In this document: piece after piece, positions 12,973 through 63,354 of the stretch
How positions within the stretch are numbered: position 1 is the stretch's first letter
Layout: each line of letters starts with the position of its first letter
Assembly: GCA_035310145.1 (NCBI GenBank)
Contig: DATGEL010000030.1
Coordinates: 3,419-67,418 of the forward strand
Source: Dehalococcoidia bacterium
GTDB lineage: Bacteria > Chloroflexota > Dehalococcoidia > CAUJGQ01
Length of the DNA: 64,000 nt
Reading direction: 5' to 3'
Notes under the pieces: model-generated
Seen by the model: the letters and a program-made list of their open reading frames with translations, nothing else
Databases searched by the model: none
What the model was told of the DNA's origin: nothing
Program-made: the position numbers and the translations under genes

Positions 12973-14148
12973 ATGGACTTCCGCTTCTCCGCGGCCGAAG
13001 AGGCGTTTCGCGCCGAGCTGCTCGGCTTTCTGCGCGAGGTCGCGCCGCCCGGCTGGGAGCGGCGCTTCGCCGGCGATGCGGCCGCGCTCTGGGGCTTCGA
13101 GCGCGAGTTTCAGCGCAAGCTGGCCGAGCGGCGCTGGCTGGCGCTGCCCTGGCCGCACGAGCTGGGCGGTTTCGGCGCCAGCTATATGCAGCAACTGATC
13201 TTCAACGAGACGATGGCCTACAACCGCGCGCCCTCGTTCGTGAACATGGGCGTCGCCTGGGTCGGGCCCTCGATCATGACCTACGGCACGGACGAGCAGA
13301 AGCGCCGCTACGTGCGCCGCATCGCCGAGGGCGAGGATATCTGGTGCACGCTCTACTCCGAGCCGGGCGCCGGCTCCGACCTCGCCAGCCTGCAAACCCG
13401 CGCCGAACGTGACGGCGACGAGTACGTGATCAACGGCCAGAAGATCTGGACGACCTACGCACACCTCTCCGATTACGGCTGGCTCGCCGCCCGCACCGAC
13501 CCCGCCGCGCCCAAGCATAAGGGCATCAGCACCTTCGTCGTGCCCATGAAAGCGCCGGGTGTGCAGGTGCGGCCGCTGGTGAACATGGCGGACGGGCACG
13601 AGTTCAACGAGGTCTTTTTCGAGAACGTGCGCGTGCCGAAGGAGAACCTGGTCGGCGAGGAGAACCGCGGCTGGTACCAGGTCGCCACCGGCCTCGACAT
13701 CGAGCGCACGGCGATCGGCAGCCCGGCCACGGCGCGCCGCACGCTGGAAGACCTGGTGCAGTTCTGCAAGACGGCGCGGAGAGGCGGCCGGGCGCTGATC
13801 GACGATCCGATCGCGCGGCACACGCTGGCCGACCTCGCGGTCAGCATCGACATGGCGAAGATGCTGTCGTACCGCATTGCCTCGATGCAGACGGCGGGCC
13901 GGGCGCCGGGCTATGAGGCATCGAGCGCCAAGATGTTCGGCACGGAGCTGAACCAGCGGCTGGCGAACGCGGCAGTGGGCCTCCTCGGCCTCGCCGGCCA
14001 GCTCGACGGCGTCGACGCCCGCGCCCCGCTGCACGGCCGGCTCAAGTATCTCTACCTGCGCATGGTGGCGAACACGATCGAGGGCGGCACCAGCGAGATC
14101 CAGCGCACCGTGATCGCCACCCGCGGCCTCGGTCTGCCGCGGGGCTGA
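12973..14148 (+). CDS. acyl-CoA dehydrogenase
   Basis: Full-length ACAD: YSEPGAGSDLASLQTRAERDGDEYVINGQKIWTT, and the C-terminus EGGTSEIQRTVIATRGLGLPRG. SD GAAGGTGG is upstream of the ATG. Confidence 0.9.
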   Translation: MDFRFSAAEEAFRAELLGFLREVAPPGWERRFAGDAAALWGFEREFQRKLAERRWLALPWPHELGGFGASYMQQLIFNETMAYNRAPSFVNMGVAWVGPSIMTYGTDEQKRRYVRRIAEGEDIWCTLYSEPGAGSDLASLQTRAERDGDEYVINGQKIWTTYAHLSDYGWLAARTDPAAPKHKGISTFVVPMKAPGVQVRPLVNMADGHEFNEVFFENVRVPKENLVGEENRGWYQVATGLDIERTAIGSPATARRTLEDLVQFCKTARRGGRALIDDPIARHTLADLAVSIDMAKMLSYRIASMQTAGRAPGYEASSAKMFGTELNQRLANAAVGLLGLAGQLDGVDARAPLHGRLKYLYLRMVANTIEGGTSEIQRTVIATRGLGLPRG

Positions 14149-16962: not shown

Positions 16963-18126
16963 ATGGCACGCTTCAGCCTGCACACGAAGATCTGCGACCT
17001 CCTCGGCATCGAATATCCGGTGATCCTCGCCGGCATGGGGCCGACGGCGGGGCGAGCCGGTGGCGCCGCGGCCACGGCGCCGCTCGTGGCGGCCGTCTCC
17101 AACGCCGGCGGCCTCGGCGTGCTGGGCGGCGCCGGCTCCACGCCCGAGCAGTTGCGCGAGGAGATCCGCAAGGTCCGCGGTCTCACGAGCAAGCCGTTCG
17201 GCGTCGATCTGCTGCTGCCCTCCAACGTCGTGCGCCAGCCGGGCGGCAGCAACGGCGGCGCTACGGACTGGCGGGCACAGATCCCGCATCCCTACTGGGA
17301 GGCGATCGCCGGGCTGAAGGCGCAGTTCGGTATTCCCGACGTACAGCGCGAAGGTTCAGCGCCGGGGGTGGGCGCCTGGCGCATCGAGGACCAGGTGCAG
17401 GTGCTGTTCGACGAGCGGGTGCCCGTCTTCGCCTCCGGCCTGGGCAACCCCGCGCCCTACGTGCCGCGCTGCCGCGAACTGGGGATCAAGGTCACCGCCC
17501 TCGTCGGCAATGTGAAGAACGCGCGGCGCGTGGCCGACGCCGGCGTCGACATCGTCGTGGCGCAGGGGCACGAGGCCGGCGGCCATACGGGACGCATCGG
17601 CACACTGGCGCTGGTGCCGCAGGTGGTCGACGCGGTTGCGCCGGTGCCGGTGGTGGCCGCGGGCGGCATCGGCGACGGGCGCGGGCTGGCGGCGGCGCTC
17701 GCGCTCGGCGCGCACGGCGTCTGGTGCGGCACGGCGTTCCTGGCGACGGAAGAGGCGAATATTGCGTCGCTGCAGAAGCAGAAGATCGTGGAGGCGAACG
17801 AAGAGGACACGCGCGTGACGCGGCTCTACAGCGGCAAGACGATGCGGAACATCACCAACCCGCTGATCGAGGCGTGGGACGCACTCAATATCAAGGCGCT
17901 GCCGATGGGTCTGCAAGGGTTGCTGATCGCGGATCTGCTCGCCGGCATCCGTGCCTCCGACAAAGAAGAGCTGCTGATGAACGCCGCCGGCCAGATCTCC
18001 GGCCTGATCGGCGGCCTGCGCCCCGCGCGAGCCGTGCTCGACGAGATCGTGGACGGCGCCGCCGAGATCCTGACGCGCGAGCTGCCCGCGCGGGCGCAGG
18101 TCGCGGAAGGAAGCACGGTACGCTGA
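16963..18126 (+). CDS. nitronate monooxygenase (NMO/2-nitropropane dioxygenase family, FMN-dependent)
   Basis: Family signatures are VILAGMGP, GGLGVLG and GVDIVVAQGHEAGGHTG. AGAGGAGAGG lies upstream of the ATG. Confidence 0.9.
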   Translation: MARFSLHTKICDLLGIEYPVILAGMGPTAGRAGGAAATAPLVAAVSNAGGLGVLGGAGSTPEQLREEIRKVRGLTSKPFGVDLLLPSNVVRQPGGSNGGATDWRAQIPHPYWEAIAGLKAQFGIPDVQREGSAPGVGAWRIEDQVQVLFDERVPVFASGLGNPAPYVPRCRELGIKVTALVGNVKNARRVADAGVDIVVAQGHEAGGHTGRIGTLALVPQVVDAVAPVPVVAAGGIGDGRGLAAALALGAHGVWCGTAFLATEEANIASLQKQKIVEANEEDTRVTRLYSGKTMRNITNPLIEAWDALNIKALPMGLQGLLIADLLAGIRASDKEELLMNAAGQISGLIGGLRPARAVLDEIVDGAAEILTRELPARAQVAEGSTVR

Positions 18127-18290
18127 ACTGTGCCGGCGAGCGAAGAGCGCAACGATGGAGGGATGAGTTCGAGCGTCGTGTGGCGAGCGGGACACCGAAC
18201 CCCGACGCGGGTAGACGTAAGAGCTGGGCGCCCCAGCAGCCCGACTCGATCATGCGAGCGGAGCACGCCGCCAGGAGGAGCGCCCCACCA

Positions 18291-19598
18291 ATGGTCTCAC
18301 CATCATCGGCCGCCATTGAAAGCAATGCCCGTCCCGGCCCACTGACCGGCGTGCGCGTGCTCGATTTGGGCGATCCGCTCACGATCTACGCCGGCAAGCT
18401 GCTCGCCGACCTCGGCGCCGATGTGATCCTGGTCGAGCCGCCCGGCGGCGTGCCCGCCCGCAACCTGCCGCCCTTCTTCCACGAGCAGTCCGGCCCCGCG
18501 ACCTCGCTCACCTTCTGGTTCTTCAACACCTCCAAACGCTCCGTCACCTGCGACCTGCATACGGCCGACGGGCGTGCCCTCTTCGCACGGCTCGTGCCCA
18601 CGGCGCAGATCGTGCTCGAAGGCGGGCCGCCGGGCGGGCTGGACGAGCTGGGCATTGGCTTCCAGCGCTTCCACGCCGAGCTGCCGGCGCTGATCTGGGC
18701 CGGCATCAGCGGCTTCGGCAGCACAGGGCCGCGCGCCGGCTGGCTGGCCGACGACCTGGTCGGCATCGCCATGTCCGGCATCCTCACGCTCTCCGGCTAC
18801 CCCGATCGGCCGCCCGTGCAACTGCCGGGCAACCAGGGCTGGTACGCCGCCGGCATCCAGGCGGCGCAGGGGCTGCTGCTAGCGCTGCGCGTGGCCGAGC
18901 AGCACGGCGCCGGCCAGTTCGTCGACGTCTCGATGCAGGAGGCGCTCTCGCTGGCGCAGGAGACGGCGATGCAGACCTGGGATATGCGCCGCGAGGTACG
19001 CAAGCGCCAGGGCGAGGCGCGGCTGATGCCCGGCGTCGGTACCTACGAGTGCGCCGACGGCCATCTCTACTCGATGGTCGGCATCCCCGGCTTCGGCGCC
19101 AACTGGCAGGTGCTCGCCGGTTGGATGGCCGAGCAAGGCATGGCCGAAGACCTGGGCAACGAGCACTGGCAGAACATCTTGAACAGCATGAATATCCGCG
19201 AACTGACGCAGCTCTGGTCCAACCCCGAGAAGTTGGCCGACCTGCAGGCGCAGTACGCGCACGTCAACGACGTGTTGGAGCGCTTCTACAAACGGTTCAG
19301 TAAGCAGTATCTCTATGAAGAAGGCCAGCGTCGCCGCCTGCTGATCGGCCCAGCCAACACCGCACGGGATCTGCTCAACGACGCGCAACTCGCGGCGCGC
19401 GGCTGGTTCCAGCAGGTCGAGCACCCGGAGCTGCAGCAGACGGTGACCTACCCTGGTCCCCCCTACCGGCTAGCCAGATCGCCCTGGCAGATCGCCCGCC
19501 GCCCGCCGCTCCCCGGCGAGCACAACATTGAGGTCTTCGGCACGCTGGGCCTCAGCCCGGCCGACCTCGCCACGCTAACCGCCGCCCACGCAATCTAA
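18291..19598 (+). CDS. CoA transferase family III (CaiB/BaiF) protein
   Basis: PLTGVRVLDLGD...AGK..ADLGADVI. ATG 18291; alternative ATG 18252 in frame, start uncertain. Confidence 0.85.
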   Translation: MVSPSSAAIESNARPGPLTGVRVLDLGDPLTIYAGKLLADLGADVILVEPPGGVPARNLPPFFHEQSGPATSLTFWFFNTSKRSVTCDLHTADGRALFARLVPTAQIVLEGGPPGGLDELGIGFQRFHAELPALIWAGISGFGSTGPRAGWLADDLVGIAMSGILTLSGYPDRPPVQLPGNQGWYAAGIQAAQGLLLALRVAEQHGAGQFVDVSMQEALSLAQETAMQTWDMRREVRKRQGEARLMPGVGTYECADGHLYSMVGIPGFGANWQVLAGWMAEQGMAEDLGNEHWQNILNSMNIRELTQLWSNPEKLADLQAQYAHVNDVLERFYKRFSKQYLYEEGQRRRLLIGPANTARDLLNDAQLAARGWFQQVEHPELQQTVTYPGPPYRLARSPWQIARRPPLPGEHNIEVFGTLGLSPADLATLTAAHAI

Positions 19599-19615
19599 AC
19601 CCATTCCGCAGCCTC

Positions 19616-19642
19616 CCCCTCTCCATGAAATGGAGAGGGGGC
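19616..19642. repeat. palindromic element A: CCCCCTCTCCAT-GAA-ATGGAGAGGGGG, member of dispersed CTCTCC/GGAGAG repeat family
   Basis: 12-bp perfect stem between two CoA-transferase genes. Followed by GGCCGGGGGGTGAGGCCACG-ATG (start of the next gene), nearly identical to the sequence before the ATG at 56255. Confidence 0.7.
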
Positions 19643-19659
19643 CGGGGGGTGAGGCCACG

Positions 19660-20919
19660 ATGACCGCTGATCTGCCCTTGCCGCTCGCCGGCATTCGCGT
19701 GGCGGACTTCTCCTGGTTCGCCGCTGGCCCCGTGGCCGGCGCGGTGCTGGCGCAGTTCGGCGCCGAAGTTATTCGCGTCGAGTCCGAGTCGCACCTCGAC
19801 GGCCTGCGCACCACCATGCCCGTGCCGCCGGGCAGCGAAGGCAGCGTCAACGTCTCCGGCTACTACAACAACTTTAACGCGAACAAGCGCTGCTTCACGC
19901 TCAACATGAGCCGGCCCGAGGCCCGCGCCGTCGCGCTGGAGCTGCTTGCAACCTGCGACGTGATGCTGGAGAACTACACGCCGCGCATCGTGGAGAAGTG
20001 GGGGCTGACCTACGCCGACGTCGCCGCGGTGCGGCCGGACATCATCTACGTCAACATCCCCATGCAGGGCAATTGGGGGCCGCACCGCGACTTTTTGGGC
20101 TTCGGCGGTGTGCTGGCCCCGGTCAGCGGCTACAGCTACCTCGCCGGCTGGCCCGACCGCGCCCCGATCGGCGTCGGCACCAACTATCCCGACTACGTGA
20201 TCAACCCCGGCCACGCCACGATCGCCATCCTCGCCGCGCTGCGCCACCGCGACCGCACGGGGGAAGGGCAGCAGATCGAGCTCTCGCAGCTCGAATCGAC
20301 GCTCAACGGCCTCGGCCCGGCGCTGATGGAGGCAGCCGCTAACGGCACCGTGCCCCAACGCCAGGGTAACCGCTGCGCCTACGCCGCGCCGCATGCCGCC
20401 TTCCGCTGCCAGGACCGGCCGGCCACGGGCACGGGCGCGCCCGAAGACCGCTGGTGCGTGATCTCGGTCTACACCGACGCCCAGTGGCAGGCGCTGAAGG
20501 CGGAGATGGGCGAGCCGGACTGGGCCGCGGAGACGCGCTTCGGCACGCTGCTCGGCCGCAAGCAGCACGAGGACGAGCTGGAGCGCTGCACCGAGGCGTG
20601 GACGCGCACGCTCAGCGCCGAGGCGGTGGCGGAGCGGCTGCAGGACCGCGGTGTGCCGGCCGGCATCGTGCAAAGCGCCGAGGACGTGCTCGACCACGAC
20701 CCGCAGCTGCAGGCGCGCGGTCTCTACGTCTATCTCGACCACCCGGAGGCGGGCCGCACCGCCTACGACGGCCCGCACTTCGTGCTGAGCGCCACGCCGG
20801 GCGTGCTGCATACGCCGGCGCCGCTGCTGGGCGAGGCGAACGACTACATCGTGAACGAGCTGCTGGGCGTGGACGGCGAGCGCGCCGCCGACCTGCTGGT
20901 CAACCAGATCGTATATTAG
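19660..20919 (+). CDS. CoA transferase family III (CaiB/BaiF) protein
   Basis: Start at MTADLPLPLAGIRVADFS, with ATG 19660 preceded by GGTGAGG. The family is conserved throughout. Confidence 0.85.
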   Translation: MTADLPLPLAGIRVADFSWFAAGPVAGAVLAQFGAEVIRVESESHLDGLRTTMPVPPGSEGSVNVSGYYNNFNANKRCFTLNMSRPEARAVALELLATCDVMLENYTPRIVEKWGLTYADVAAVRPDIIYVNIPMQGNWGPHRDFLGFGGVLAPVSGYSYLAGWPDRAPIGVGTNYPDYVINPGHATIAILAALRHRDRTGEGQQIELSQLESTLNGLGPALMEAAANGTVPQRQGNRCAYAAPHAAFRCQDRPATGTGAPEDRWCVISVYTDAQWQALKAEMGEPDWAAETRFGTLLGRKQHEDELERCTEAWTRTLSAEAVAERLQDRGVPAGIVQSAEDVLDHDPQLQARGLYVYLDHPEAGRTAYDGPHFVLSATPGVLHTPAPLLGEANDYIVNELLGVDGERAADLLVNQIVY

Positions 20920-32323: not shown

Positions 32324-33511
32324 CTACCCCCGCGGCAAGCCCAGCCCCCGCGTGGCGATCACGTTGCGCTGGATCTCGCTGGTGCCCGCGGCGATCGTGG
32401 CGGAGACGCTGCTCAGGTACATGTGCGCGATGCGGCCGCGCAGCGGCGCCCACTTGCTGCCACGGTCCAGCCCGCCGTACATCCCCAGCATGCGCGTGCC
32501 CAGCCGCGCCACCCGCTGGCTCACCTCCGAGCGGTACATCTTGTTCACCGAGGCCTCGTGGTTCGGCACCTGGCCGCGCTTCTGGATGCTGATCACGCGG
32601 TAGGAGAACAGCCGCGCAATCTCCGCCTCCACCAGCTTCTCCGCCAGCTCCAACCGCAGCCCCGGCGTGAGATACAGCGGCTTGCCCGCGTCGCTCTTCG
32701 CCTCGCGCGCGTATTTGATCAGGTCGTTGACCGTGTGCTTGAGGCCGATGCTGGCGCCGATGTTCGAGCGCTCGAAGTCCAGCAGCGTGGCGCCGACATA
32801 CCAGCCGCGGTTCTCCTCGCCCACCCGGTTCTTCACCGGCACGCGCACGCTGTCGAAGAACTCCTGGTTGAAGACGTGGTCGTTCGCCATCGTCACCAGC
32901 GGCTGCACGGAGAGGCCCGGCGTCTTCATGTCGAGCAGCAGCATGGAGATGCCGCGATGCTTCGGCGCCTCCGGGTCGGTGCGGGCGAGCATGAACATCC
33001 AGTCGGCGCGGTGAGCGCCGCTGGTCCAGATCTTCTGGCCGTTCAGCACGTAGTCATCGCCGTCGCGCACGGCACGGGTTTGCAGACTGGCCAGGTCGGA
33101 GCCGGAGCCGGGCTCCGAGTAGCCCTGGCACCACTGGATCTCGCCGCTGGTGATGCGCGGCAAGTGCTCCTGCTTCTGCTCGTCCGTGCCGTAAAGGATC
33201 AGCGTGGGGCCGATCATCTGCACGCCCATACCGCCCACCTGCGGCGCCCGCGCCTCGGCCATCTCTTCGTTGAAGATGAACTGCTCGCTGACGCTCATGC
33301 CGGCGCCGCCGTACTCTTTGGGCCAGTGCGGCGCGATCCAGCGCTTCTGCCCCAGCGCCGTGCGCCACTGCTTGCGGAAGTCTTCTTCCTGGCGGCTGAG
33401 GTCGTAGCGCTCCATCTCCGGGTTGGCGAAGCGCGACGGCAGGTTCTCGTTGATGAACCCGCGCACCTCACTGCGGAAGGCGGCCTCTGCGGCGGTGTCC
33501 TGGAACTGCAT
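32324..33511 (-). CDS. acyl-CoA dehydrogenase
   Basis: ATG 33511 has GGAGG upstream. It is full-length and about 75% identical to the ACAD at 54924..56108, with long identical blocks. Confidence 0.9.
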   Translation of the reverse strand: MQFQDTAAEAAFRSEVRGFINENLPSRFANPEMERYDLSRQEEDFRKQWRTALGQKRWIAPHWPKEYGGAGMSVSEQFIFNEEMAEARAPQVGGMGVQMIGPTLILYGTDEQKQEHLPRITSGEIQWCQGYSEPGSGSDLASLQTRAVRDGDDYVLNGQKIWTSGAHRADWMFMLARTDPEAPKHRGISMLLLDMKTPGLSVQPLVTMANDHVFNQEFFDSVRVPVKNRVGEENRGWYVGATLLDFERSNIGASIGLKHTVNDLIKYAREAKSDAGKPLYLTPGLRLELAEKLVEAEIARLFSYRVISIQKRGQVPNHEASVNKMYRSEVSQRVARLGTRMLGMYGGLDRGSKWAPLRGRIAHMYLSSVSATIAAGTSEIQRNVIATRGLGLPRG

Positions 33512-33658
33512 CGTCACGCTCCTCCGTTGCCGGCCGCTGAACGGTCCGGATCGTACGCGCGGGCGCCGAATGACGTTCGATCGCCGCGCCACGTCCGATC
33601 ATGGCGCGGCGAGACGAATTTCGCAAGAGGGAAGCGCGCGGCGAAAGCTTCGGAGAGC

Positions 33659-34423: not shown

Positions 34424-35710
34424 ATGATCGAGGAGCGCCGCCGCGGCGGCGACGACGAGCGCGGGCTTGCCGCCATGCCGCTGATCCTCTCCGACGAAGA
34501 CCTGGCTGCCGCGCGCGCCGGCCGCTCCGCCACGATGCCGCTCGCGGGCCTGCGCGTGATCGACGCCGGCCAGATCATCGCCGGCCCCTTCGGCCCCTCG
34601 CTGCTGGCCGACTTCGGCGCCGACGTGATCTCGATCGAAAATCCGGAACTGGTCGGCCTGGAGCTGGCGCCCAGCGTGGCGCTGGGCCGCGCCGTGCTGG
34701 GGCGCAACAAGCGCTCGATCACGCTCGACCTGCGCACGCCGCGCGGGCAGGAGCTGCTGCGGCAGCTCGCCGCCGTCGCCGACGTGCTGGTGGAGAATTA
34801 CTCGCCCGGCACGATGGAACGCTGGGGCATCGGCCCCGACGACCTGGCGAAGGTCAACCCGCGCCTCGTCTATGTGCGCGTCTCCGGCTACGGCCAGACG
34901 GGGCCGTACCGGCAGAAGGGCGGCTACGACCGCGTGGCGATGGCCTTCGGCGGCCTGCTCGAAGTCACCGGCGCGCCCGACGGCGAGCCGGTGCACCCCG
35001 GCTACATGCTCGGCGACCACCTGGCCGGCACCTTCAACGCGCTCGGCGCCCTGATCGCCCTCTACTGGCGCGACGCGGCCGGCGGTGGCGCCGGGCAGGT
35101 GGTGGATGTCTCGCTCTACGAGCCGCTGTTCCGCGTCTCGCACAACATCGCCGGCGAGTACGCGCACGACGGCAAGGTGCGGCGCCGTGCCGGCAACACG
35201 CGCAATTGGACCGTTCCCGGTCAGCAGTTCCGCACGAAGGACGACCGCTGGGCGCTGATTATCGCGCCCTCCGATCGCCTCTTCATCCGCCTCTGCCAGG
35301 CGATGGGCCGGACGGAGCTGACGGTCGATCCGCGCTTCATGCCCGCGCACGTGCGCCAGCAGCACGCCGACGAGATCCACGCCGAGATCCGCCCCTGGGT
35401 GGCGCGGCACACGCTGGCCGAGGTGATCGCGATCCTGGACGCCGAGCGCGTGCCCGTGGGGCCGATCTACGCGATCGACGAGATCTTCGACGACCCGCAG
35501 TTCGAGGCGCGGGAGGACATTGTCGAGATTCCCGACGCGCATGTGGGCCGCGCGGCGATGCCGAACGTGGTGCCGAAGCTCTCGCGCACGCCCGGCGGCG
35601 TGCACAGCCCCGCGCCGCGCACCGGCGAGCACAACGAGGACGTTTATGGCGGCCTGCTCTCGCTCTCGCCGGCGGCGATCGCGGCCCTGCGCGAGGCGAA
35701 GGTGATCTGA
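34424..35710 (+). CDS. CoA transferase family III (CaiB/BaiF) protein
   Basis: MPLAGLRVIDAGQIIAGPFG is in the family N-terminal region. The start is uncertain, with ATG 34424, 34472 or 34535 in frame. Confidence 0.85.
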   Translation: MIEERRRGGDDERGLAAMPLILSDEDLAAARAGRSATMPLAGLRVIDAGQIIAGPFGPSLLADFGADVISIENPELVGLELAPSVALGRAVLGRNKRSITLDLRTPRGQELLRQLAAVADVLVENYSPGTMERWGIGPDDLAKVNPRLVYVRVSGYGQTGPYRQKGGYDRVAMAFGGLLEVTGAPDGEPVHPGYMLGDHLAGTFNALGALIALYWRDAAGGGAGQVVDVSLYEPLFRVSHNIAGEYAHDGKVRRRAGNTRNWTVPGQQFRTKDDRWALIIAPSDRLFIRLCQAMGRTELTVDPRFMPAHVRQQHADEIHAEIRPWVARHTLAEVIAILDAERVPVGPIYAIDEIFDDPQFEAREDIVEIPDAHVGRAAMPNVVPKLSRTPGGVHSPAPRTGEHNEDVYGGLLSLSPAAIAALREAKVI

Positions 35711-41805: not shown

Positions 41806-42279
41806 GTGGAAGAGCTTGCCCTGCAGATCATCGAAACGCTGCCCCTCTCGCTGCGCCGCCTGACGGCCGACCTGAGCGAGGAGCAACTGCGCCGCCGCCC
41901 GGCCGCGGGCGAGTGGTCGATCGCGGAGATCACCGGCCACCTGATCGACAAGACCGAGGTCTGGGGCGAGCGCTTCCGCCATATCGCCACGCAGGATCAG
42001 CCCTCGCTGCCCGCCTTCGATCAGGACGCCTGGGTGCGGGAGCGCGGCTACCAGGCGCAGCCGTTTCCGGCGCTGGCGGAGCGGCTGGGCGGCATGCTCA
42101 TGCAACTGGCGGCCGAGCTGCGCCAACTGCCGCCCGAGGCCTGGGAGCGAGTCGGCCTGCACGAAGAGCGCGGCCGCTTGAGCCTGGCCGAAGCCTGCCG
42201 CATCTACGCGATCTCGCTGCCGCAGCACGTGGAGCAGATCGTGAGCGCACGCGCGGCGGCGCTGGCGCGGCCCGCATAA
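41806..42279 (+). CDS. DinB-family (DinB_2) protein
   Basis: GTG 41806 lies 6 nt after AGGAGA. The conserved His motif is WSIAEITGHLID. Confidence 0.75.
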   Translation: MEELALQIIETLPLSLRRLTADLSEEQLRRRPAAGEWSIAEITGHLIDKTEVWGERFRHIATQDQPSLPAFDQDAWVRERGYQAQPFPALAERLGGMLMQLAAELRQLPPEAWERVGLHEERGRLSLAEACRIYAISLPQHVEQIVSARAAALARPA

Positions 42280-42287
42280 CCCCCGTC

Positions 42288-42356
42288 CCCCTGCTCTCCC
42301 ATATACAGATGGTTGGGAGATCTGCCGCATTTGGCGAACATATGGGAGAGCAGGGG
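42288..42356. repeat. palindromic element B: 17-bp perfect inverted repeat CCCCTGCTCTCCCATAT / ATATGGGAGAGCAGGGG separated by 35 nt containing GGTTGGGAGATCTGC
   Basis: Arms at 42288-42304 and 42340-42356. It is followed by AGGGGCGATCCGGCGTCGGG, which also occurs near 49645. Confidence 0.7.
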
Positions 42357-42477
42357 CGATCCGGCGTCGGGCGTGCCGTACGGTCTGCGGCTCACCGGTG
42401 CGCAGCCTGAACGCGCTCAGGGCGCCCAGCCGGGCCATGCTAACCCGGCCAGCCCGCGCCCAACCTCCCCACGATCG

Positions 42478-42511
42478 CCCCCTTCTCTCCCAGTATTGGG
42501 AGAGAAGGGGG
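42478..42511. repeat. palindromic element C: CCCCCTTCTCTCCCA-GTAT-TGGGAGAGAAGGGGG
   Basis: 15-bp stem with 4-nt loop, just downstream of the peptidase M23 stop at 42537. It is followed by TCGGGGGGTTATGAGGGCC, which resembles the GGGGGTGAGGCC tails of elements A and E. Confidence 0.7.
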
Positions 42512-42536
42512 TCGGGGGGTTATGAGGGCCCGCTCT

Positions 42537-49039: not shown

Positions 49040-49569
49040 GCCGCGCGCTCGGCTGCCGCGGCGGCCTCGCGGCCGTACTTGCTGCCGGGGACGTAGTAGC
49101 GCCGCGCCCAGATGCCGGTGCGCGCCTCAGCGCCCACGGGCATGCGCCAGGTGGTGACGCGGCTCTCGGCGAGCGGCACGGCAAGCAGCGCCCGCGGCTG
49201 GTCGATCGTGTTCTGGATGTAGGCTTCCGCGCCCGTGGCCGGCACGTAGCGCAGCGCGATCGCGCGGTAGGTGTCGCGCCAGGCGTCGTCGTCGCCGGTC
49301 TCGTGCAGGATGCGGCAGACGCCCTGCACGCTGAGCTTGCGGTAGGGCAGCGCCTCCTCGTCGATCGAGAGGGCGACGCGCGGATCGCGGCGCAGGTTGT
49401 GCAGGAAGACGGACGCGGCGCGCGGCGTGAACAGGATCGCGCCGTCGCGGTGCAGGAACCAGGCCGGCGCCACGCGCGGCATGCCGTCGGCATCGATGGA
49501 GCCGATGCGTACGAGGTGCCCCGGCTCGGCGAGAAAGGCGTTCAGTTCGGACGTGCTCAGGCGTGGCAT
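49030..49569 (-). CDS. pyridoxamine 5'-phosphate oxidase (PPOX)-family FMN/F420-binding protein
   Basis: Start at MPRLSTSELNAFL (ATG 49569, GGAGG upstream). The family core is VRIGSIDADGMPRVAPAWF. Confidence 0.8.
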   Translation of the reverse strand: MPRLSTSELNAFLAEPGHLVRIGSIDADGMPRVAPAWFLHRDGAILFTPRAASVFLHNLRRDPRVALSIDEEALPYRKLSVQGVCRILHETGDDDAWRDTYRAIALRYVPATGAEAYIQNTIDQPRALLAVPLAESRVTTWRMPVGAEARTGIWARRYYVPGSKYGREAAAAAERAAQS

Positions 49570-49574
49570 ACGAG

Positions 49575-49690
49575 CCTCCATTCCCCCTTCCATGGGAGAT
49601 CTGCGATGGCGGTTCCTCCAATCCTAGGGGCAAGGGGCGATCCGGCATGGAGCGATCCAGGTGGCGTCGGGTTACGCGTATAGTACGCGG
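49575..49690. repeat. element F: related member of the palindromic repeat family (CCATGGGAGATCTGC ... AGGGGCGATCCGGC ... GGCGTCGGG)
   Basis: It shares GGGAGATCTGC and (A)GGGGCGATCCGGC...GGCGTCGGG with element B (42316-42370). It lies in the divergent intergenic region between the PPOX gene and 49796. Confidence 0.5.
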
Positions 49691-49795
49691 ACCGCGCCGG
49701 GAAGGGCGGGCGGCGCGCTTTGCTATACTTGGCTCGCATGCGGCGTTTTGCACCGGATGGGCGGCCGCGGCAAATCCTCTGAGGCGAGAGTTCAG

Positions 49796-53378: not shown

Positions 53379-54557
<1,179 letters not shown>

Positions 54558-54590
54558 GGGTTGCCTCCGTCTGCGTCTCGGCCTTCTATC

Positions 54591-54770
54591 CCCCGTCCCC
54601 TTTCCCCCAATCTCTGACATCGCGCGGGGCGCGATTTGGGGTGAGGGAAAGGGGCGATCGGGCGGAGGAGGAATCGGACGATGCCGGGTTAACCGCATGA
54701 TCGTCGGAACGCCCGACCCCGGATCGCCCCTCTCCCAGGATTGGGAGAGGGGAAGGGGGTGAGGGCCGAC
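54591..54770. repeat. compound palindromic element D between divergent ACAD genes: CCCCCGTCCCCTTTCCCCCAA..., GGGGCGATCGGGC / GCCCGACCCCGGATCGCCCC inverted pair, and hairpin CCCCTCTCCCA-GGAT-TGGGAGAGGGG followed by AAGGGGGTGAGGGCC
   Basis: The hairpin is at 54727-54752 (11-bp stem). CCCCCGTCCCCT at 54591 matches element B at 42281. GGGGCGATC at 54651-54659 and GATCGCCCC at 54722-54730 are inverted copies of the motif seen in elements B and F. Confidence 0.6.
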
Positions 54771-54923: not shown

Positions 54924-56108
<1,185 letters not shown>

Positions 56109-56215
56109 GGCCGCTTGCGCTCCTTGCCTCCGCTGTCCGAGAGACGGAGATCGACGACTGGATCGACTGAGGCTGAAAGCGGGGCGGTGAGGCTCCTCAG
56201 CTCCGCTCCGAAGCT

Positions 56216-56240
56216 CCCCTCTCCCTGGCATAGAGAGGGG
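56216..56240. repeat. palindromic element E: CCCCTCTC-CCTGGCATA-GAGAGGGG followed by CCGGGGGTGAGGCC-ATG
   Basis: 8-bp stem with 9-nt loop. The 3' tail GAGAGGGGCCGGGGGTGAGGCCATG matches element A's GAGAGGGGGCCGGGGGGTGAGGCCACGATG. The ATG is the thiolase start at 56255. Confidence 0.65.
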
Positions 56241-56254
56241 CCGGGGGTGAGGCC

Positions 56255-57400
56255 ATGCCGCATCCGCTCTACCGCGGCGCCGCGATCGCCGGCGTCGATG
56301 AGTCCGACCAGATCGGCAACGTGCCGAACAAGACCTCGCTGCAACTGCATGCCGAGGCGGCGATCAACGCGCTCGCCGACGCCGGCATCGACAGGTCCGA
56401 GGTCGACGGCATCGCCACGGCCGGCGTCTCGCCCATGCAGACGGCCGAGTATCTCGGCATCGTGCCGCGCTATTCCGACGGCACCTCGGTCGGCGGTTCT
56501 TCGTTCGTGATCCACGTCGGCCACGCGCTGGAGGCGATCGCCGGCGGCCGCGCCTCCGTCGTGCTGATCACGCACGGCGAGGGGCACCTGGGTGGCGGCC
56601 GGCGCGGCCCCGGCGGGCCAGACCCTTCCAACCTCGCCGGGCAGTACGAGGCGCCGTTCGGCGTGCTGGGGCCGCCCTACGCCTACTCGCTCGCCTGTAT
56701 GCGGCACATGGCGCTCTACGGCACGACCAAAGAGCAGCTCGCGCAGATCGCCGTGCAGACGCGCCAGTGGGCGAGTATGAACCCCAAGGCGCTGATGCGC
56801 GATCCGATCACCGTCGAGGACGTGCTCAACTCGCGCCTGATCTCCTACCCCTTCAACCTGCTCGACTGCTGCCTGGTCACGGACGCCGGCGGCGCCTGCG
56901 TTGTCGTCAGCCCCGAGCGGGCGCGCGATCTGAAGAAGAAGCCGGTCTGGGTGCTGGGCGCCGGCGAGGCGCACGACCACAGCATGATCAGCCAGATGCC
57001 CGACCTCACGCGCACGCCGGCGCAGTACTCCGGCCCGGCGGCGATGGGCATGGCCGGCGTCTCGCACGCTGAGATCGACCTGGCGATGCTCTACGACTCC
57101 TTCACCTACACCGTGCTGGTGACGCTGGAATCGCTGGGCTTCTGCAAGCCGGGCGAGGGCGGCGCCTTCGTGAGCAACGGCCGCCTGGGACCGGGCGGCG
57201 CCCTGCCCACGAACACCAACGGCGGCGGCCTGAGCTACACGCACTCGGGCATGTACGGGATGTTCCTGCTGCTGGAGGCCACACGCCAGTTGCGCGGCGA
57301 GTGCGGCCAGCGCCAGGTGGCGAACGGCAAGATCGCCCTGGTGAACGGCACCGGCGGCTCGCTCTCCTCCACGGGCACGCTGGTGCTCGCCGCCGATTAG
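56255..57400 (+). CDS. thiolase-like protein (SCP2/lipid-transfer-protein type)
   Basis: AIAGVDESDQIGNVPNKTSLQL is the N-terminal region, and NTNGGGLS a C-terminal motif. It is paralogous to 20988..22175. Confidence 0.85.
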   Translation: MPHPLYRGAAIAGVDESDQIGNVPNKTSLQLHAEAAINALADAGIDRSEVDGIATAGVSPMQTAEYLGIVPRYSDGTSVGGSSFVIHVGHALEAIAGGRASVVLITHGEGHLGGGRRGPGGPDPSNLAGQYEAPFGVLGPPYAYSLACMRHMALYGTTKEQLAQIAVQTRQWASMNPKALMRDPITVEDVLNSRLISYPFNLLDCCLVTDAGGACVVVSPERARDLKKKPVWVLGAGEAHDHSMISQMPDLTRTPAQYSGPAAMGMAGVSHAEIDLAMLYDSFTYTVLVTLESLGFCKPGEGGAFVSNGRLGPGGALPTNTNGGGLSYTHSGMYGMFLLLEATRQLRGECGQRQVANGKIALVNGTGGSLSSTGTLVLAAD

Positions 57401-61711: not shown

Positions 61712-62021
61712 ACGCGTACAGAAGACTGCACATCCGGCCCGTCGCCCCGCCACTGAGGGTGCTCTGGCGCCAAACCTCACTGCCGAAGCCGGGGCGGTGC
61801 GGGTATGCCCGCGGCAGCGTCGCGGGGCGTGTCCTCACTATAGCGGCCGGCTGGAGCCGCCCGCGAAGGGTAAGCGTTCGGGAACGGCGCGGCGATCGTG
61901 GGCCGAATGTGCTTAAGGAATCTCCCCGCCATCCCGAAATTAGCAACAGGACACGGCGATCCTAAGCCAGTGGGGCCAGGGAAATCGTCGCGCCGAGATA
62001 TTTATGGGGAAGGGTTCTGCA

Positions 62022-62213
62022 ATGTCGTTGGTCGATCGCTTTCTCCTCCGCGCCGTCGCCGCCGCGTATCAGCCGCGTGGTGACGAAGAGGGCCAGGGCC
62101 TGGCCGAGTACGGCCTGATCCTGGCGCTGATCGCCGTTGTTTGCGTGGCGGCGCTGACCCTGCTCGGCGGCAACATCAGCAACACGCTCAACAGCATCGC
62201 CGGCAGCCTCTAA
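62022..62213 (+). CDS. flp: Flp/Fap family type IVb pilin
   Basis: MSLVDRFLLRAVAAAYQPRGDEEGQGLAEYGLILALIAVVCVAALTLLG has the canonical Flp motif. ATG 62022 lies 7 nt after GGGAAGGG. An AT-richer promoter-like region is upstream. Confidence 0.75.
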   Translation: MSLVDRFLLRAVAAAYQPRGDEEGQGLAEYGLILALIAVVCVAALTLLGGNISNTLNSIAGSL

Positions 62214-62218
62214 GGCAC

Positions 62219-62284
62219 GCAACGCCATGCACAAGGAACCGGAGGCCGCTATGCCGGCCTCCGGTTCCTTGTGCATGGCGTTGC
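62219..62284. terminator. 30-bp perfect inverted repeat with 6-nt loop between convergent flp and menA-like genes (bidirectional terminator-like hairpin)
   Basis: The left arm 62219-62248 is GCAACGCCATGCACAAGGAACCGGAGGCCG, the loop is CTATGC, and the right arm 62255-62284 is its exact reverse complement. No U-tract follows. Confidence 0.7.
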
Positions 62285-62303: not shown

Positions 62304-63200
62304 TCAGTGCGGCACGACGAGACCGGCAACCAGCCCCGCGGCCAGCAGGGCGCCGAAGCGCATGTGCAGCTGCGCCGTGCGAAAGAGCACGTAGTTGAGC
62401 TTGCGCGGCTCGCGCGTGCGCGCGGTGAAGCGCACGGCCCGCAGCGCCGCCGGCAACGTGAGCAGGGTGAGCAGCACCGGCCAGGGCGCCACGCGCGCCA
62501 CCACCATCACGATCAGCGAAGCGTAGGCGGCGCCGATCAGCAGGTAGTACTCCCAGTTGGCGGGGCGCCGGCCGATGATCGTCGCCAGCGTGCGCTTGCC
62601 GTGCCGGCGGTCGTCCTCGATGTCGCGCAGGTTGTTGGCGTGCAGGATCGCCGTGACCAGAAAGGCGATCGGCAGCGAGACGATGAACGGATCCCAGCTC
62701 CAGTGCGCCGTCTGCACGTAGTAGGCGCCCATCACCATCACCGGCCCCATGAACACGAACACGGTCAGCTCGCCCAGGGCGATGTAGGCGAGCGAGATCG
62801 GCGCGCCGGTGTAGAAGAAGCCGGCCGCCACGCTCGCCAGCCCAAGCCAGAGCAACGGCAGCCCAACCAGCGCAACCAGCGCCAGCCCGCACAGCGCCCC
62901 CGCCGCGAAGCAGGCGATGCCCAGCCGCAGCACCTCGCGCGGCTTGATCAAGCCGCGCCGGATCGCGTTGCTCGGGCCGAGCGAATCCGGCCCGTCCACA
63001 CCCTTGACGTGGTCGTAATAGTCGTTGACCAGGTTGGTGCCGGCCTGGATCAGCACCGAGCCGAGCAGCGCCAGCAGGAAGTAGAAGGGATTGAACGCCT
63101 TCGGCGCGGCGACGAGCGTGCCGACGACGACCGGCACGATCGCCGCCGTGAACGAGAACGGCCGGGCGGCCCCGAACCACAGCTTCACGCGCGGACTCAT
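62304..63200 (-). CDS. menA: UbiA-family prenyltransferase, 1,4-dihydroxy-2-naphthoate octaprenyltransferase (MenA)-like
   Basis: Start at MSPRVKLWFGAARPFSFTAAIVPVVVG (ATG 63200, GGGAG upstream). The Asp-rich motif is NLVNDYYDHVKGVD. Confidence 0.8.
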   Translation of the reverse strand: MSPRVKLWFGAARPFSFTAAIVPVVVGTLVAAPKAFNPFYFLLALLGSVLIQAGTNLVNDYYDHVKGVDGPDSLGPSNAIRRGLIKPREVLRLGIACFAAGALCGLALVALVGLPLLWLGLASVAAGFFYTGAPISLAYIALGELTVFVFMGPVMVMGAYYVQTAHWSWDPFIVSLPIAFLVTAILHANNLRDIEDDRRHGKRTLATIIGRRPANWEYYLLIGAAYASLIVMVVARVAPWPVLLTLLTLPAALRAVRFTARTREPRKLNYVLFRTAQLHMRFGALLAAGLVAGLVVPH

Positions 63201-63354
63201 GGCTCTCCCCTTGCCCCGGCAAGCACAGCGCCCGGTTCTCTGCCCCGGCTCGCGCGCCGGCGCCGGCCACATCGTACGCGGCCCTCGCGTTTGAAGCGAG
63301 TGTTACAACTGTGATACCTTCGGCGCGACGTAACGCCCGCAGGCGGGGGGCAGG

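Follow-up and report, generated by a model that had tools for sequence, protein, structure and literature searches.

The stretch of DNA analyzed here, 64 kb long and hereafter called the window, has a G+C content of about 70%, encodes proteins with exact matches in soil-metagenome contigs, and is rich in genes for acyl-CoA dehydrogenases, CoA-transferase III, SCP-x-type thiolases, ChsH2-like proteins and enoyl-CoA hydratases. Several of its intergenic regions contain GC-rich sequences that can form hairpins, and the question is whether these are chance palindromes, copies of a mobile element, regulatory RNAs of the adjacent beta-oxidation-type genes, or representatives of some other class of repeat.

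Seven copies of one repeat

The repeat is present in seven copies in five intergenic regions of the window, four on the plus strand (19613-19657, 42472-42530, 54710-54770 and 56214-56254, denoted A1, A2, A3 and A4, respectively) and three on the minus strand (42271-42373, 49570-49654 and 54582-54663, denoted B1, B2 and B3). All six sites named in the original prediction are present as described there, with stems of 8-17 bp; the longest stem is a perfect (100%) 17-bp inverted repeat at 42288-42304/42340-42356, in B1, and the site at 54591-54770 comprises two copies, B3 and A3. The earlier contention that these are not chance palindromes is borne out. Perfect 8-bp hairpins in which the left arm is all pyrimidine and the right arm all purine occur at five sites in the window, compared to a mean of 0.07 in 30 Markov-resampled windows, and at all five the pyrimidine arm comes first on the plus strand. 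A relaxed three-segment pattern, which allows 8-nt stems and a second loop of 2-8 nt, matches two copies (A1 and A3), against an expectation of 0.00. All seven copies are intergenic or, at most, overlap a stop codon, and their density is approximately one per 9 kb; a search with the flank motifs for further degenerate copies in the window yields none besides these seven.

After reverse complementation, B1, B2 and B3 have the same layout as the A copies, which rules out the existence of two separate families, one with a hairpin and a tail and the other with a head and a GATCC module. In this layout, the pyrimidine arm is followed by a loop, the purine arm, 2-4 nt of linker and a G-rich tail that mirrors the purine arm, with G opposite G and either A or T opposite A. 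The form common to A1-A4 is CCCCTCTCC-loop-GGAGAGGGG-(2-4 nt)-GGGGGTGAGG(G)CC; the 5' flank is (CGCCCGAC-N-CC)GGATCG or CGATCG, and the tail is followed by GGCC or CCGA. Two motifs that had been recorded as separate components are thus accounted for: the CCCCCGTCCCC head at 42281 and 54591 does exist but is the G-rich 3' tail of minus-strand copies read on the opposite strand, and the GGGGCGATCCGGC/GGCGTCGGG module, equally real, is the reverse complement of the 5' flank CGCCCGAC-N-CCGGATCG that precedes the pyrimidine arm.

Copy A1 occupies the spacer between a pair of CoA-transferase III genes, one of which stops at 19598 and the other starts with the ATG at 19660, and consists of the pyrimidine arm CCCCCTCTCC (19615-19624), the loop ATGAAAT, the purine arm GGAGAGGGGG (19632-19641), the linker CCG and the tail GGGGGTGAGG (19645-19654), with a DNA fold z of -3.05. 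In A3, the canonical copy, the flank CGCCCGACCCCGGATCG (54710-54726) leads into the pyrimidine arm CCCCTCTCCC (54727-54736), the loop AGGATT, the purine arm GGGAGAGGGG (54743-54752), the linker AAG and the tail GGGGTGAGGG (54756-54765), followed by CCGAC. Copy A2 has the flank CGATCG, the longer arms CCCCCTTCTCTCCC (42478-42491) and GGGAGAGAAGGGGG (42498-42511) around the loop AGTATT, the linker TCG and the tail GGGGGTTATGAGGG (42515-42528), with z = -6.36. The short arms of A4, CCCCTCTC (56216-56223) and, beyond the loop, GAGAGGGG (56233-56240), are followed by the linker CCG, the tail GGGGTGAGG (56244-56252), CC and the ATG of a thiolase-like gene at 56255.

On the minus strand, B1 (z = -5.98) starts with the flank CGCCCGACGCCGGATCG (42357-42373, no mismatches), followed by the pyrimidine arm CCCCTGCTCTCCCATAT (42340-42356), a 35-nt loop, the purine arm ATATGGGAGAGCAGGGG (42288-42304), the linker GACG and the tail GGGGTTATGCGGG (42271-42283). 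The B1 tail contains the final codons of a DinB-family gene (41806-42279) along with its TAA stop, so that the element supplies the end of this reading frame. Copy B3, the end of which is about 25 nt upstream of the start of an acyl-CoA dehydrogenase gene (53379-54557), has the flank CGATCG, the pyrimidine arm CCCCTTTCCC(TCA)CCCCAAATC, a loop, the purine arm GATTGGGGGAAAGGGG, the linker ACG and the tail GGGGATAGAAGG (54582-54593). Copy B2 is degenerate, with the flank CCGGATCG followed by CCCCTTGCC, a loop that contains AGGATT and GCAGATCTCCCA, and GGAAGGGG; the region of its tail is replaced by GGAGG, the Shine-Dalgarno (SD) sequence of a PNPOx-like gene (start at 49569). It folds no better than shuffled sequences (z = +1.8) and is recognized only by the shared flank and the loop insert GCAGATCTCCCA, which is found also in B1. 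B2 is a decayed copy that lacks a stable fold.

Four of the copies form two inverted pairs with the tails pointing outward, B1 with A2 between two convergent genes (composite 42271-42530) and B3 with A3 in a divergent promoter region (composite 54582-54770). The two composites are homologous over their length in flipped orientation, have the central motif GCTAACCCGGC in common, and are both bounded by inverted termini of about 22 nt.

Identification as a BoxC/PIT/TMECO element

A full-text literature search for two core words of the repeat leads to the papers of Holder et al. (NAR 2015, PMC4666352) and Kaplan et al. (2016), and hence to an element of Escherichia coli and other Proteobacteria that was described by Bachellier and Hofnung in the 1990s as BoxC, by Hoyne and Maher (2000) as PIT elements, and by Holder et al. 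as TMECO. The TMECO copies of E. coli K-12 tabulated by the latter authors (Table 1 in PMC4666352) closely match those in the window; for example, CCCTCTCCCTGTGGGAGAGGGCCGGGGTGAGGGC, from an E. coli locus that was also read directly, is nearly identical to CCCCTCTCCCAGGATTGGGAGAGGGGAAGGGGGTGAGGGC of A3. The polypyrimidine/polypurine hairpin with a short loop that is typical of this class is present in six of the seven copies, the exception being the degenerate B2. The strict TMECO consensus, CCCTCNCCC N3-6 GGGNGAGGG N3 GGGNGAGGG, has no match in the window because the stems there are 8-14 nt long, with either at least one additional G-C pair or a length of 8 nt, and the second loop is 2-4 nt, but does match three loci from elsewhere (L016, L017 and L024); this pattern defines the E. 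coli subtype rather than the class. A blastn search of A3 against all complete E. coli genomes gives no match, probably owing to the low-complexity filter, given the short query. Taken together, these observations leave little doubt that the repeat is a BoxC/PIT/TMECO element, that is, one of a known kind. The copies in this Chloroflexota genome are distinguished by flanks specific to the lineage, by longer stems and by pairing with the tails outward. The original prediction correctly perceived a single dispersed intergenic family but overlooked the defining G-rich third segment, so that the known class was not recognized.

Distribution across phyla and viral contigs

As had been proposed, the core was sought beyond the window. 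A scan for the purine arm and tail (GAGAGGGG N2-5 GGGGGTGAGG) with one genome per species identifies the same element in at least 120 loci from many phyla. Judging by their titles, the matches listed come from Planctomycetota, Chloroflexota, Bacteroidota, Acidobacteriota, several proteobacterial classes, Cyanobacteria, Armatimonadota, Gemmatimonadota, Patescibacteria, Bipolaricaulota and Methylomirabilota. In most of the loci among these listed matches, the pyrimidine arm, which was not part of the search pattern, is found just upstream, and this cannot be due to chance. The element is also present in viral contigs, where the pyrimidine arm accompanies 157 of 189 matches and where, in AT-rich contigs, the element stands out as a GC island.

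Some of these loci contain tandem head-to-tail arrays with periods of about 36, 41 or 72-78 nt (L012, positions 74-251; L015, 12-139; the whole of L113; and L190, 1750-2829). Locus L190, the 43.5-kb viral contig IMGVR_UViG_3300020057_000061, has at least 14 copies, which are all located on the same strand. Two AT-rich phage-like contigs, the viral L200 (39% G+C) and L142 (45% G+C), have five copies each, apparently on the strand of the neighboring genes, as far as crude ORF calls indicate; in L200, an ATG comes 0-5 nt after two of the copies.

Co-variation of the third segment

The relationship between the purine arm and the tail follows the rules of a class II (purine motif) triplex. When the tail is aligned antiparallel to the purine arm and the triads G.G-C, A.A-T and T.A-T are scored as compatible, the window copies give 10/10 for A1 and A3, 13/14 for A2, 8/9 for A4, 10/12 for B3, 10/13 for B1 and 5/8 for B2. 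Departures from the common form recur in all three segments: A2 has an added TT in the pyrimidine arm, AA in the purine arm and TT in the tail, and B3 and its orthologue have TTT, AAA and ATA, respectively, so that AAA of the arm is opposite ATA of the tail. The arm/tail pairs within the lineage include GGGAGAGAAGGGGG/GGGGGTTATGAGGG, GGGGGAAAGGGG/GGGGATAGAGGG and GGGAGAAGGAGA/AGAGGATGAGGG; in the relatives, GGGAGAAGGAGA similarly goes with AGAGGATGAGGG and GGGGAAAGAGGG with GGGAGATAGGGG. Among the fetched loci, which were picked via the consensus pattern and provide only 21 independent variant palindromes, 9 of the 21 non-consensus polypyrimidine/polypurine palindromes have a fully (100%) triad-compatible tail within 8 nt, and for 8 of the 11 best variants, swapped tails equal the score of the native tail in no more than 5% of the trials.

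Where the arms are asymmetric, the tail is a mirror repeat of the arm and not a direct repeat; to our knowledge, mirror repeats cannot arise from copying by a polymerase. According to the literature cited by Holder et al. (PMC4666352), purine-motif triplexes exclude RNA strands. Given the mirror rule and this exclusion, the structure that is maintained would most simply be a single-stranded DNA fold.

Turnover among relatives and probable co-option of the tail

Comparison with related genomes points to turnover. Copy A4 is absent from the orthologous spacer of the relative L131/L132, the thiolase of which is 94% identical to that encoded in the window; the missing sequence, of about 36 nt, directly precedes the ATG. 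The entire spacer between the acyl-CoA dehydrogenase and thiolase genes is 329 nt long in L131 (3172-3500) and 147 nt in the window, and in place of A4, the L131 spacer contains other pyrimidine/purine hairpins, CCCTTCC...GGAAGGG with TTGGGGGTT, and CCCTTCCC GCTTC GGGAAGGG. In the A3 orthologue of L131, a T-A pair of the stem is replaced, through compensatory change, by G-C, and the loop AGGATT is inverted to AATCCT. A second such loop flip, with ATGAAAT in L128 (4076-4115) and ATTTCAT in the near-identical L129/L130, leaves the arms and the tail unchanged. The B3 orthologue in L131 is compact, whereas in the window, the loop of B3 is expanded by 27 nt, which makes the palindrome longer. Copy B2 is located at a synteny break: in the relatives, the element is absent and the upstream gene encodes a Lactamase_B protein, where the window has the PNPOx-like gene; the promoter-like TTTGCTATACT box is conserved. 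A promoter-like box, TTTGCTATACTTGGCTCGC (49715-49740), is conserved upstream of the DUF6391 gene in the relatives L124-L130, at 72-95% identity. Relatives at 83-84% identity contain no copies in 21 kb, and only a handful of copies are found in 512 kb of more distant loci. Thus, the loci are hypervariable between close relatives, in agreement with the published description of BoxC/PIT elements as patchily distributed and residing at hypervariable loci (PMC4666352).

In A4 and A1, the tail occupies the position of the SD sequence of the downstream gene. The window has GGGGGTGAGG-CC-ATG before the thiolase gene where the relatives have SD sequences of the AGGAGG type, and the ancestral GGAG has decayed in the window to GAAG, further upstream; A1 has the same arrangement, GGGGGGTGAGGCCACG-ATG. 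The sequence GGGGGUGA can pair, with one wobble, with the anti-SD at the 3' end of 16S rRNA. A tail that acts from the SD position would allow insertions directly upstream of start codons to be tolerated. The tail region of B2 is probably co-opted in the same manner. As a general role of the tail, SD function is rejected: a long ORF starts 3-10 nt after the tail in only 7 of 217 elements, and starts are no more common there than on the other side of the element.

Alternative explanations

The turnover of the copies raises the possibility that the repeat is a non-autonomous mobile element, REP/RAYT-like or MITE-like, with the hairpins or the composites moved by a transposase encoded elsewhere. 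The presence or absence of A4 between close relatives, the patchy, lineage-specific abundance, the many copies in viral contigs, which could provide a route between hosts and phyla, the lengthwise homology of the composites with their inverted termini, and the conservation within the lineage of the AGGATT loop and the CGATCG...CCGAC flanks, suggestive of copying from a master, are all compatible with this view. However, no target-site duplication is seen at A4, the sole filled/empty comparison, in which the flanks have diverged; no RAYT or transposase domain is detectable in the approximately 40 window ORFs scanned; the GTAG/CGTC head is not found in the window copies; and Holder et al. reported no association of the E. 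coli elements with mobile elements (PMC4666352). Recognition by a transposase alone would also leave the triplex-rule co-variation of the tail unexplained. Mobility of this type therefore appears rather unlikely. The earlier label "REP-like" can be retained only if it is taken loosely, to denote any short repeat that is structured and dispersed, as neither a RAYT gene nor the head is seen in the window. Of the MITE signature, the composites show the inverted termini, and the only site that bears on a target-site duplication is A4 with its diverged flanks. A G-quadruplex/hairpin/duplex switch that regulates nearby genes, as proposed by Kaplan et al. (NAR 2016, PMC5100583), would exploit the G-tracts of the purine arm and the tail, four in total. 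A canonical (G3+N1-7)x4 motif is present in A3, A2 and B1, and that paper reports the formation of both hairpin and G-quadruplex by the same E. coli element, as detected by circular dichroism. Such a switch is nevertheless quite improbable as the explanation for the repeat: the canonical motif occurs in only 85 of 260 elements from bacteria and viruses, and in three of the seven in the window (A1 and A4 lack it), so that the G-quadruplex, for which only about a third of the copies qualify, was rejected as the common denominator. Furthermore, A/T positions of the tail track A positions of the arm, which a G-quadruplex does not require, and neither the position nor the orientation of the elements with respect to genes is consistent.

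Two explanations at the RNA level fare worse. The sense orientation of A1 and A4 between co-directional genes, with the tail at SD distance, the compensatory change in the A3 stem and the high stability of some hairpins would fit a cis-regulatory RNA or mRNA element, such as an attenuator, a 3' stabilizing hairpin or a translational operator, serving operons of the beta-oxidation type. The regulatory RNA envisaged in the original prediction is, however, not supported. No Rfam family is detected at the gathering score, and permissive E-values bring up only sub-threshold matches to models of generic hairpins. A sense-strand bias, the sign expected of RNA function, is not found among 116 informative copies: where the adjacent genes are in tandem, bacterial copies have the G-rich strand in the sense orientation in 22 cases and in the antisense orientation in 36, and the respective counts for viral contigs are 27 and 31, with genes called crudely by longest-ORF tiling and a GC3 filter and with the many elements that overlap called ORFs left out. 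Copies B1 and A2 are antisense to the nearest genes, starts at SD spacing are not enriched overall, and the neighboring genes are functionally unrelated. The link to beta-oxidation genes that had been noted reflects the gene content of the window; three of the seven copies adjoin unrelated genes (DinB/M23 peptidase and PNPOx/DUF6391). The mirror rule of the third segment, too, fits a DNA purine-motif triplex from which, according to the cited literature, RNA strands are excluded. A dedicated RNA role is accordingly very unlikely. Rho-independent or bidirectional transcription termination would suit the stable, GC-rich hairpins of B1 and A2 between convergent genes, but a terminator scan picks up none of the seven copies, the stems are not followed by T-runs, A1 and A4 directly precede start codons within operons, the location of A3, B3 and B2 is upstream of genes, and PIT elements showed no terminator activity in E. 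coli (PMC4666352), which makes this function extremely unlikely.

A probable DNA-level structured repeat

The comparative evidence is best compatible with a repeat that is structured at the DNA level, unstable and probably selfish, and that on occasion has been exapted as a hairpin bearing an SD sequence, and we consider this interpretation probable. Under the proposed mechanism, when an element of 40-60 nt becomes single-stranded, its two arms would pair as a hairpin and the third segment would fold back antiparallel into the major groove, forming G.G-C, A.A-T and T.A-T triads; the resulting class II purine-motif triplex would form in DNA but not in RNA, and this single-stranded DNA fold would be what is maintained. 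The element might act, or be copied or lost, while the DNA is transiently single-stranded, during replication, repair, recombination or, possibly, transfer. It would thus behave as a structured repeat, selfish or near-neutral, that destabilizes the loci where it resides, and not as a dedicated regulator of the neighboring beta-oxidation-type genes, with local co-option of the purine-rich tail in the SD position at A4, A1 and, probably, B2. The case for a DNA-level role is a purely comparative one because Holder et al. were unable to detect a triplex either in double-stranded DNA or in vivo; the formation of a triplex by isolated strands (CD and NMR) was demonstrated by these authors for E. coli sequences only (PMC4666352).

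A stronger version of this proposal, which we regard as improbable, holds that many bacterial phyla and their phages share the element as a DNA module that is defined by its structure and is under selection for an intramolecular DNA triple helix. If so, the three-segment co-variation would amount to comparative evidence for a functional DNA triplex in vivo, and the element could be the site for a putative conserved enzyme acting on single-strand DNA, in mobilization, priming or repair; such an enzyme would account for the spread of the element as well as for its unstable loci.

Recognition that the six sites represent one known class of repeats in two orientations, and neither a riboswitch-like RNA nor a beta-oxidation-specific regulator, averts mis-annotation. 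It also bears on the old question of the role of BoxC/PIT elements, the core of which is found in Chloroflexota, in at least 10 other phyla according to titles, and in viral contigs. In the literature searched, functional work on these elements does not extend beyond Holder et al. (2015) and Kaplan et al. (2016). The co-variation of the tail, the loop flips and expansions, the clean gain or loss and the SD takeover provide handles for addressing this question.

Other features of the window

Between the convergent genes for a Flp pilin (62004-62213) and a UbiA-family protein (62304-63272), positions 62219-62284 form a perfect inverted repeat of 30 nt (GCAACGCCATGCACAAGGAACCGGAGGCCG and its complement) around a 6-nt loop. 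This inverted repeat, the sequence of which bears no relation to the triplex repeats, might be a bidirectional terminator. The window further encodes four paralogous acyl-CoA dehydrogenases (12973-14148, 32324-33592, 53379-54557 and 54924-56108) and three CoA-transferase III proteins (17724-20919 and 34424-35710), along with pairs of thiolase-like and ChsH2-like proteins. This set of paralogs suggests a large repertoire for the degradation of lipids or steroid side chains.

Comparison with known systems

REP/BIME elements with their RAYT proteins are similar to the window repeat in being short intergenic palindromes, often arranged in inverted pairs, patchily distributed, and sometimes forming mRNA or SD-proximal structures. 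They differ in being species-specific and in lacking a triplex-compatible third segment, whereas the window core is common to many phyla. The HPG1 motif of Kaplan et al. seems to represent E. coli sequences of the same kind, considered from the viewpoint of the G-quadruplex, and both core motifs are found in that paper (PMC5100583); most copies in the window and elsewhere, however, do not contain four G3 tracts.

The closest relationship is with the E. coli BoxC/PIT/TMECO elements, which have the same three segments and nearly the same core, CCCTCTCCC-loop-GGGAGAGGG-linker-GGGTGAGGG. They are likewise intergenic and multi-copy, with variable loops and without a fixed gene class or orientation, are patchy among relatives with unstable loci, and include inverted pairs of two different subtypes; the linker CCG is that of the E. 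coli "type B" TMECO, and E. coli, the cross-phylum loci and two relatives (L131 and L079) frequently carry the CCCTCGCCC variant. A minus-oriented BoxC copy of E. coli K-12 (L336, 164597-164640) is preceded by CGATCGGT, which resembles the CGATCG flank of Chloroflexota, a single case that may be a coincidence. Unlike the E. coli elements, those described here belong to a Chloroflexota MAG labelled Dehalococcoidia. Their stems are 8-14 nt long, compared to 9 in the E. coli TMECO, and some copies have loops of 20-35 nt, in contrast to E. coli. The 5' flank CGCCCGAC-N-CCGGATCG, the conserved loop AGGATT and the 3' CCGAC are features of the window lineage. The window pairs have their tails outward and are separated by 50-100 nt, whereas in the hrpB-mrcB pair, the single E. 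coli pair that was read, the tails point inward at a distance of 16 nt. Finally, the density in the window, with a copy in about every 9 kb, compares with 23 copies in the 4.6 Mb of E. coli K-12.
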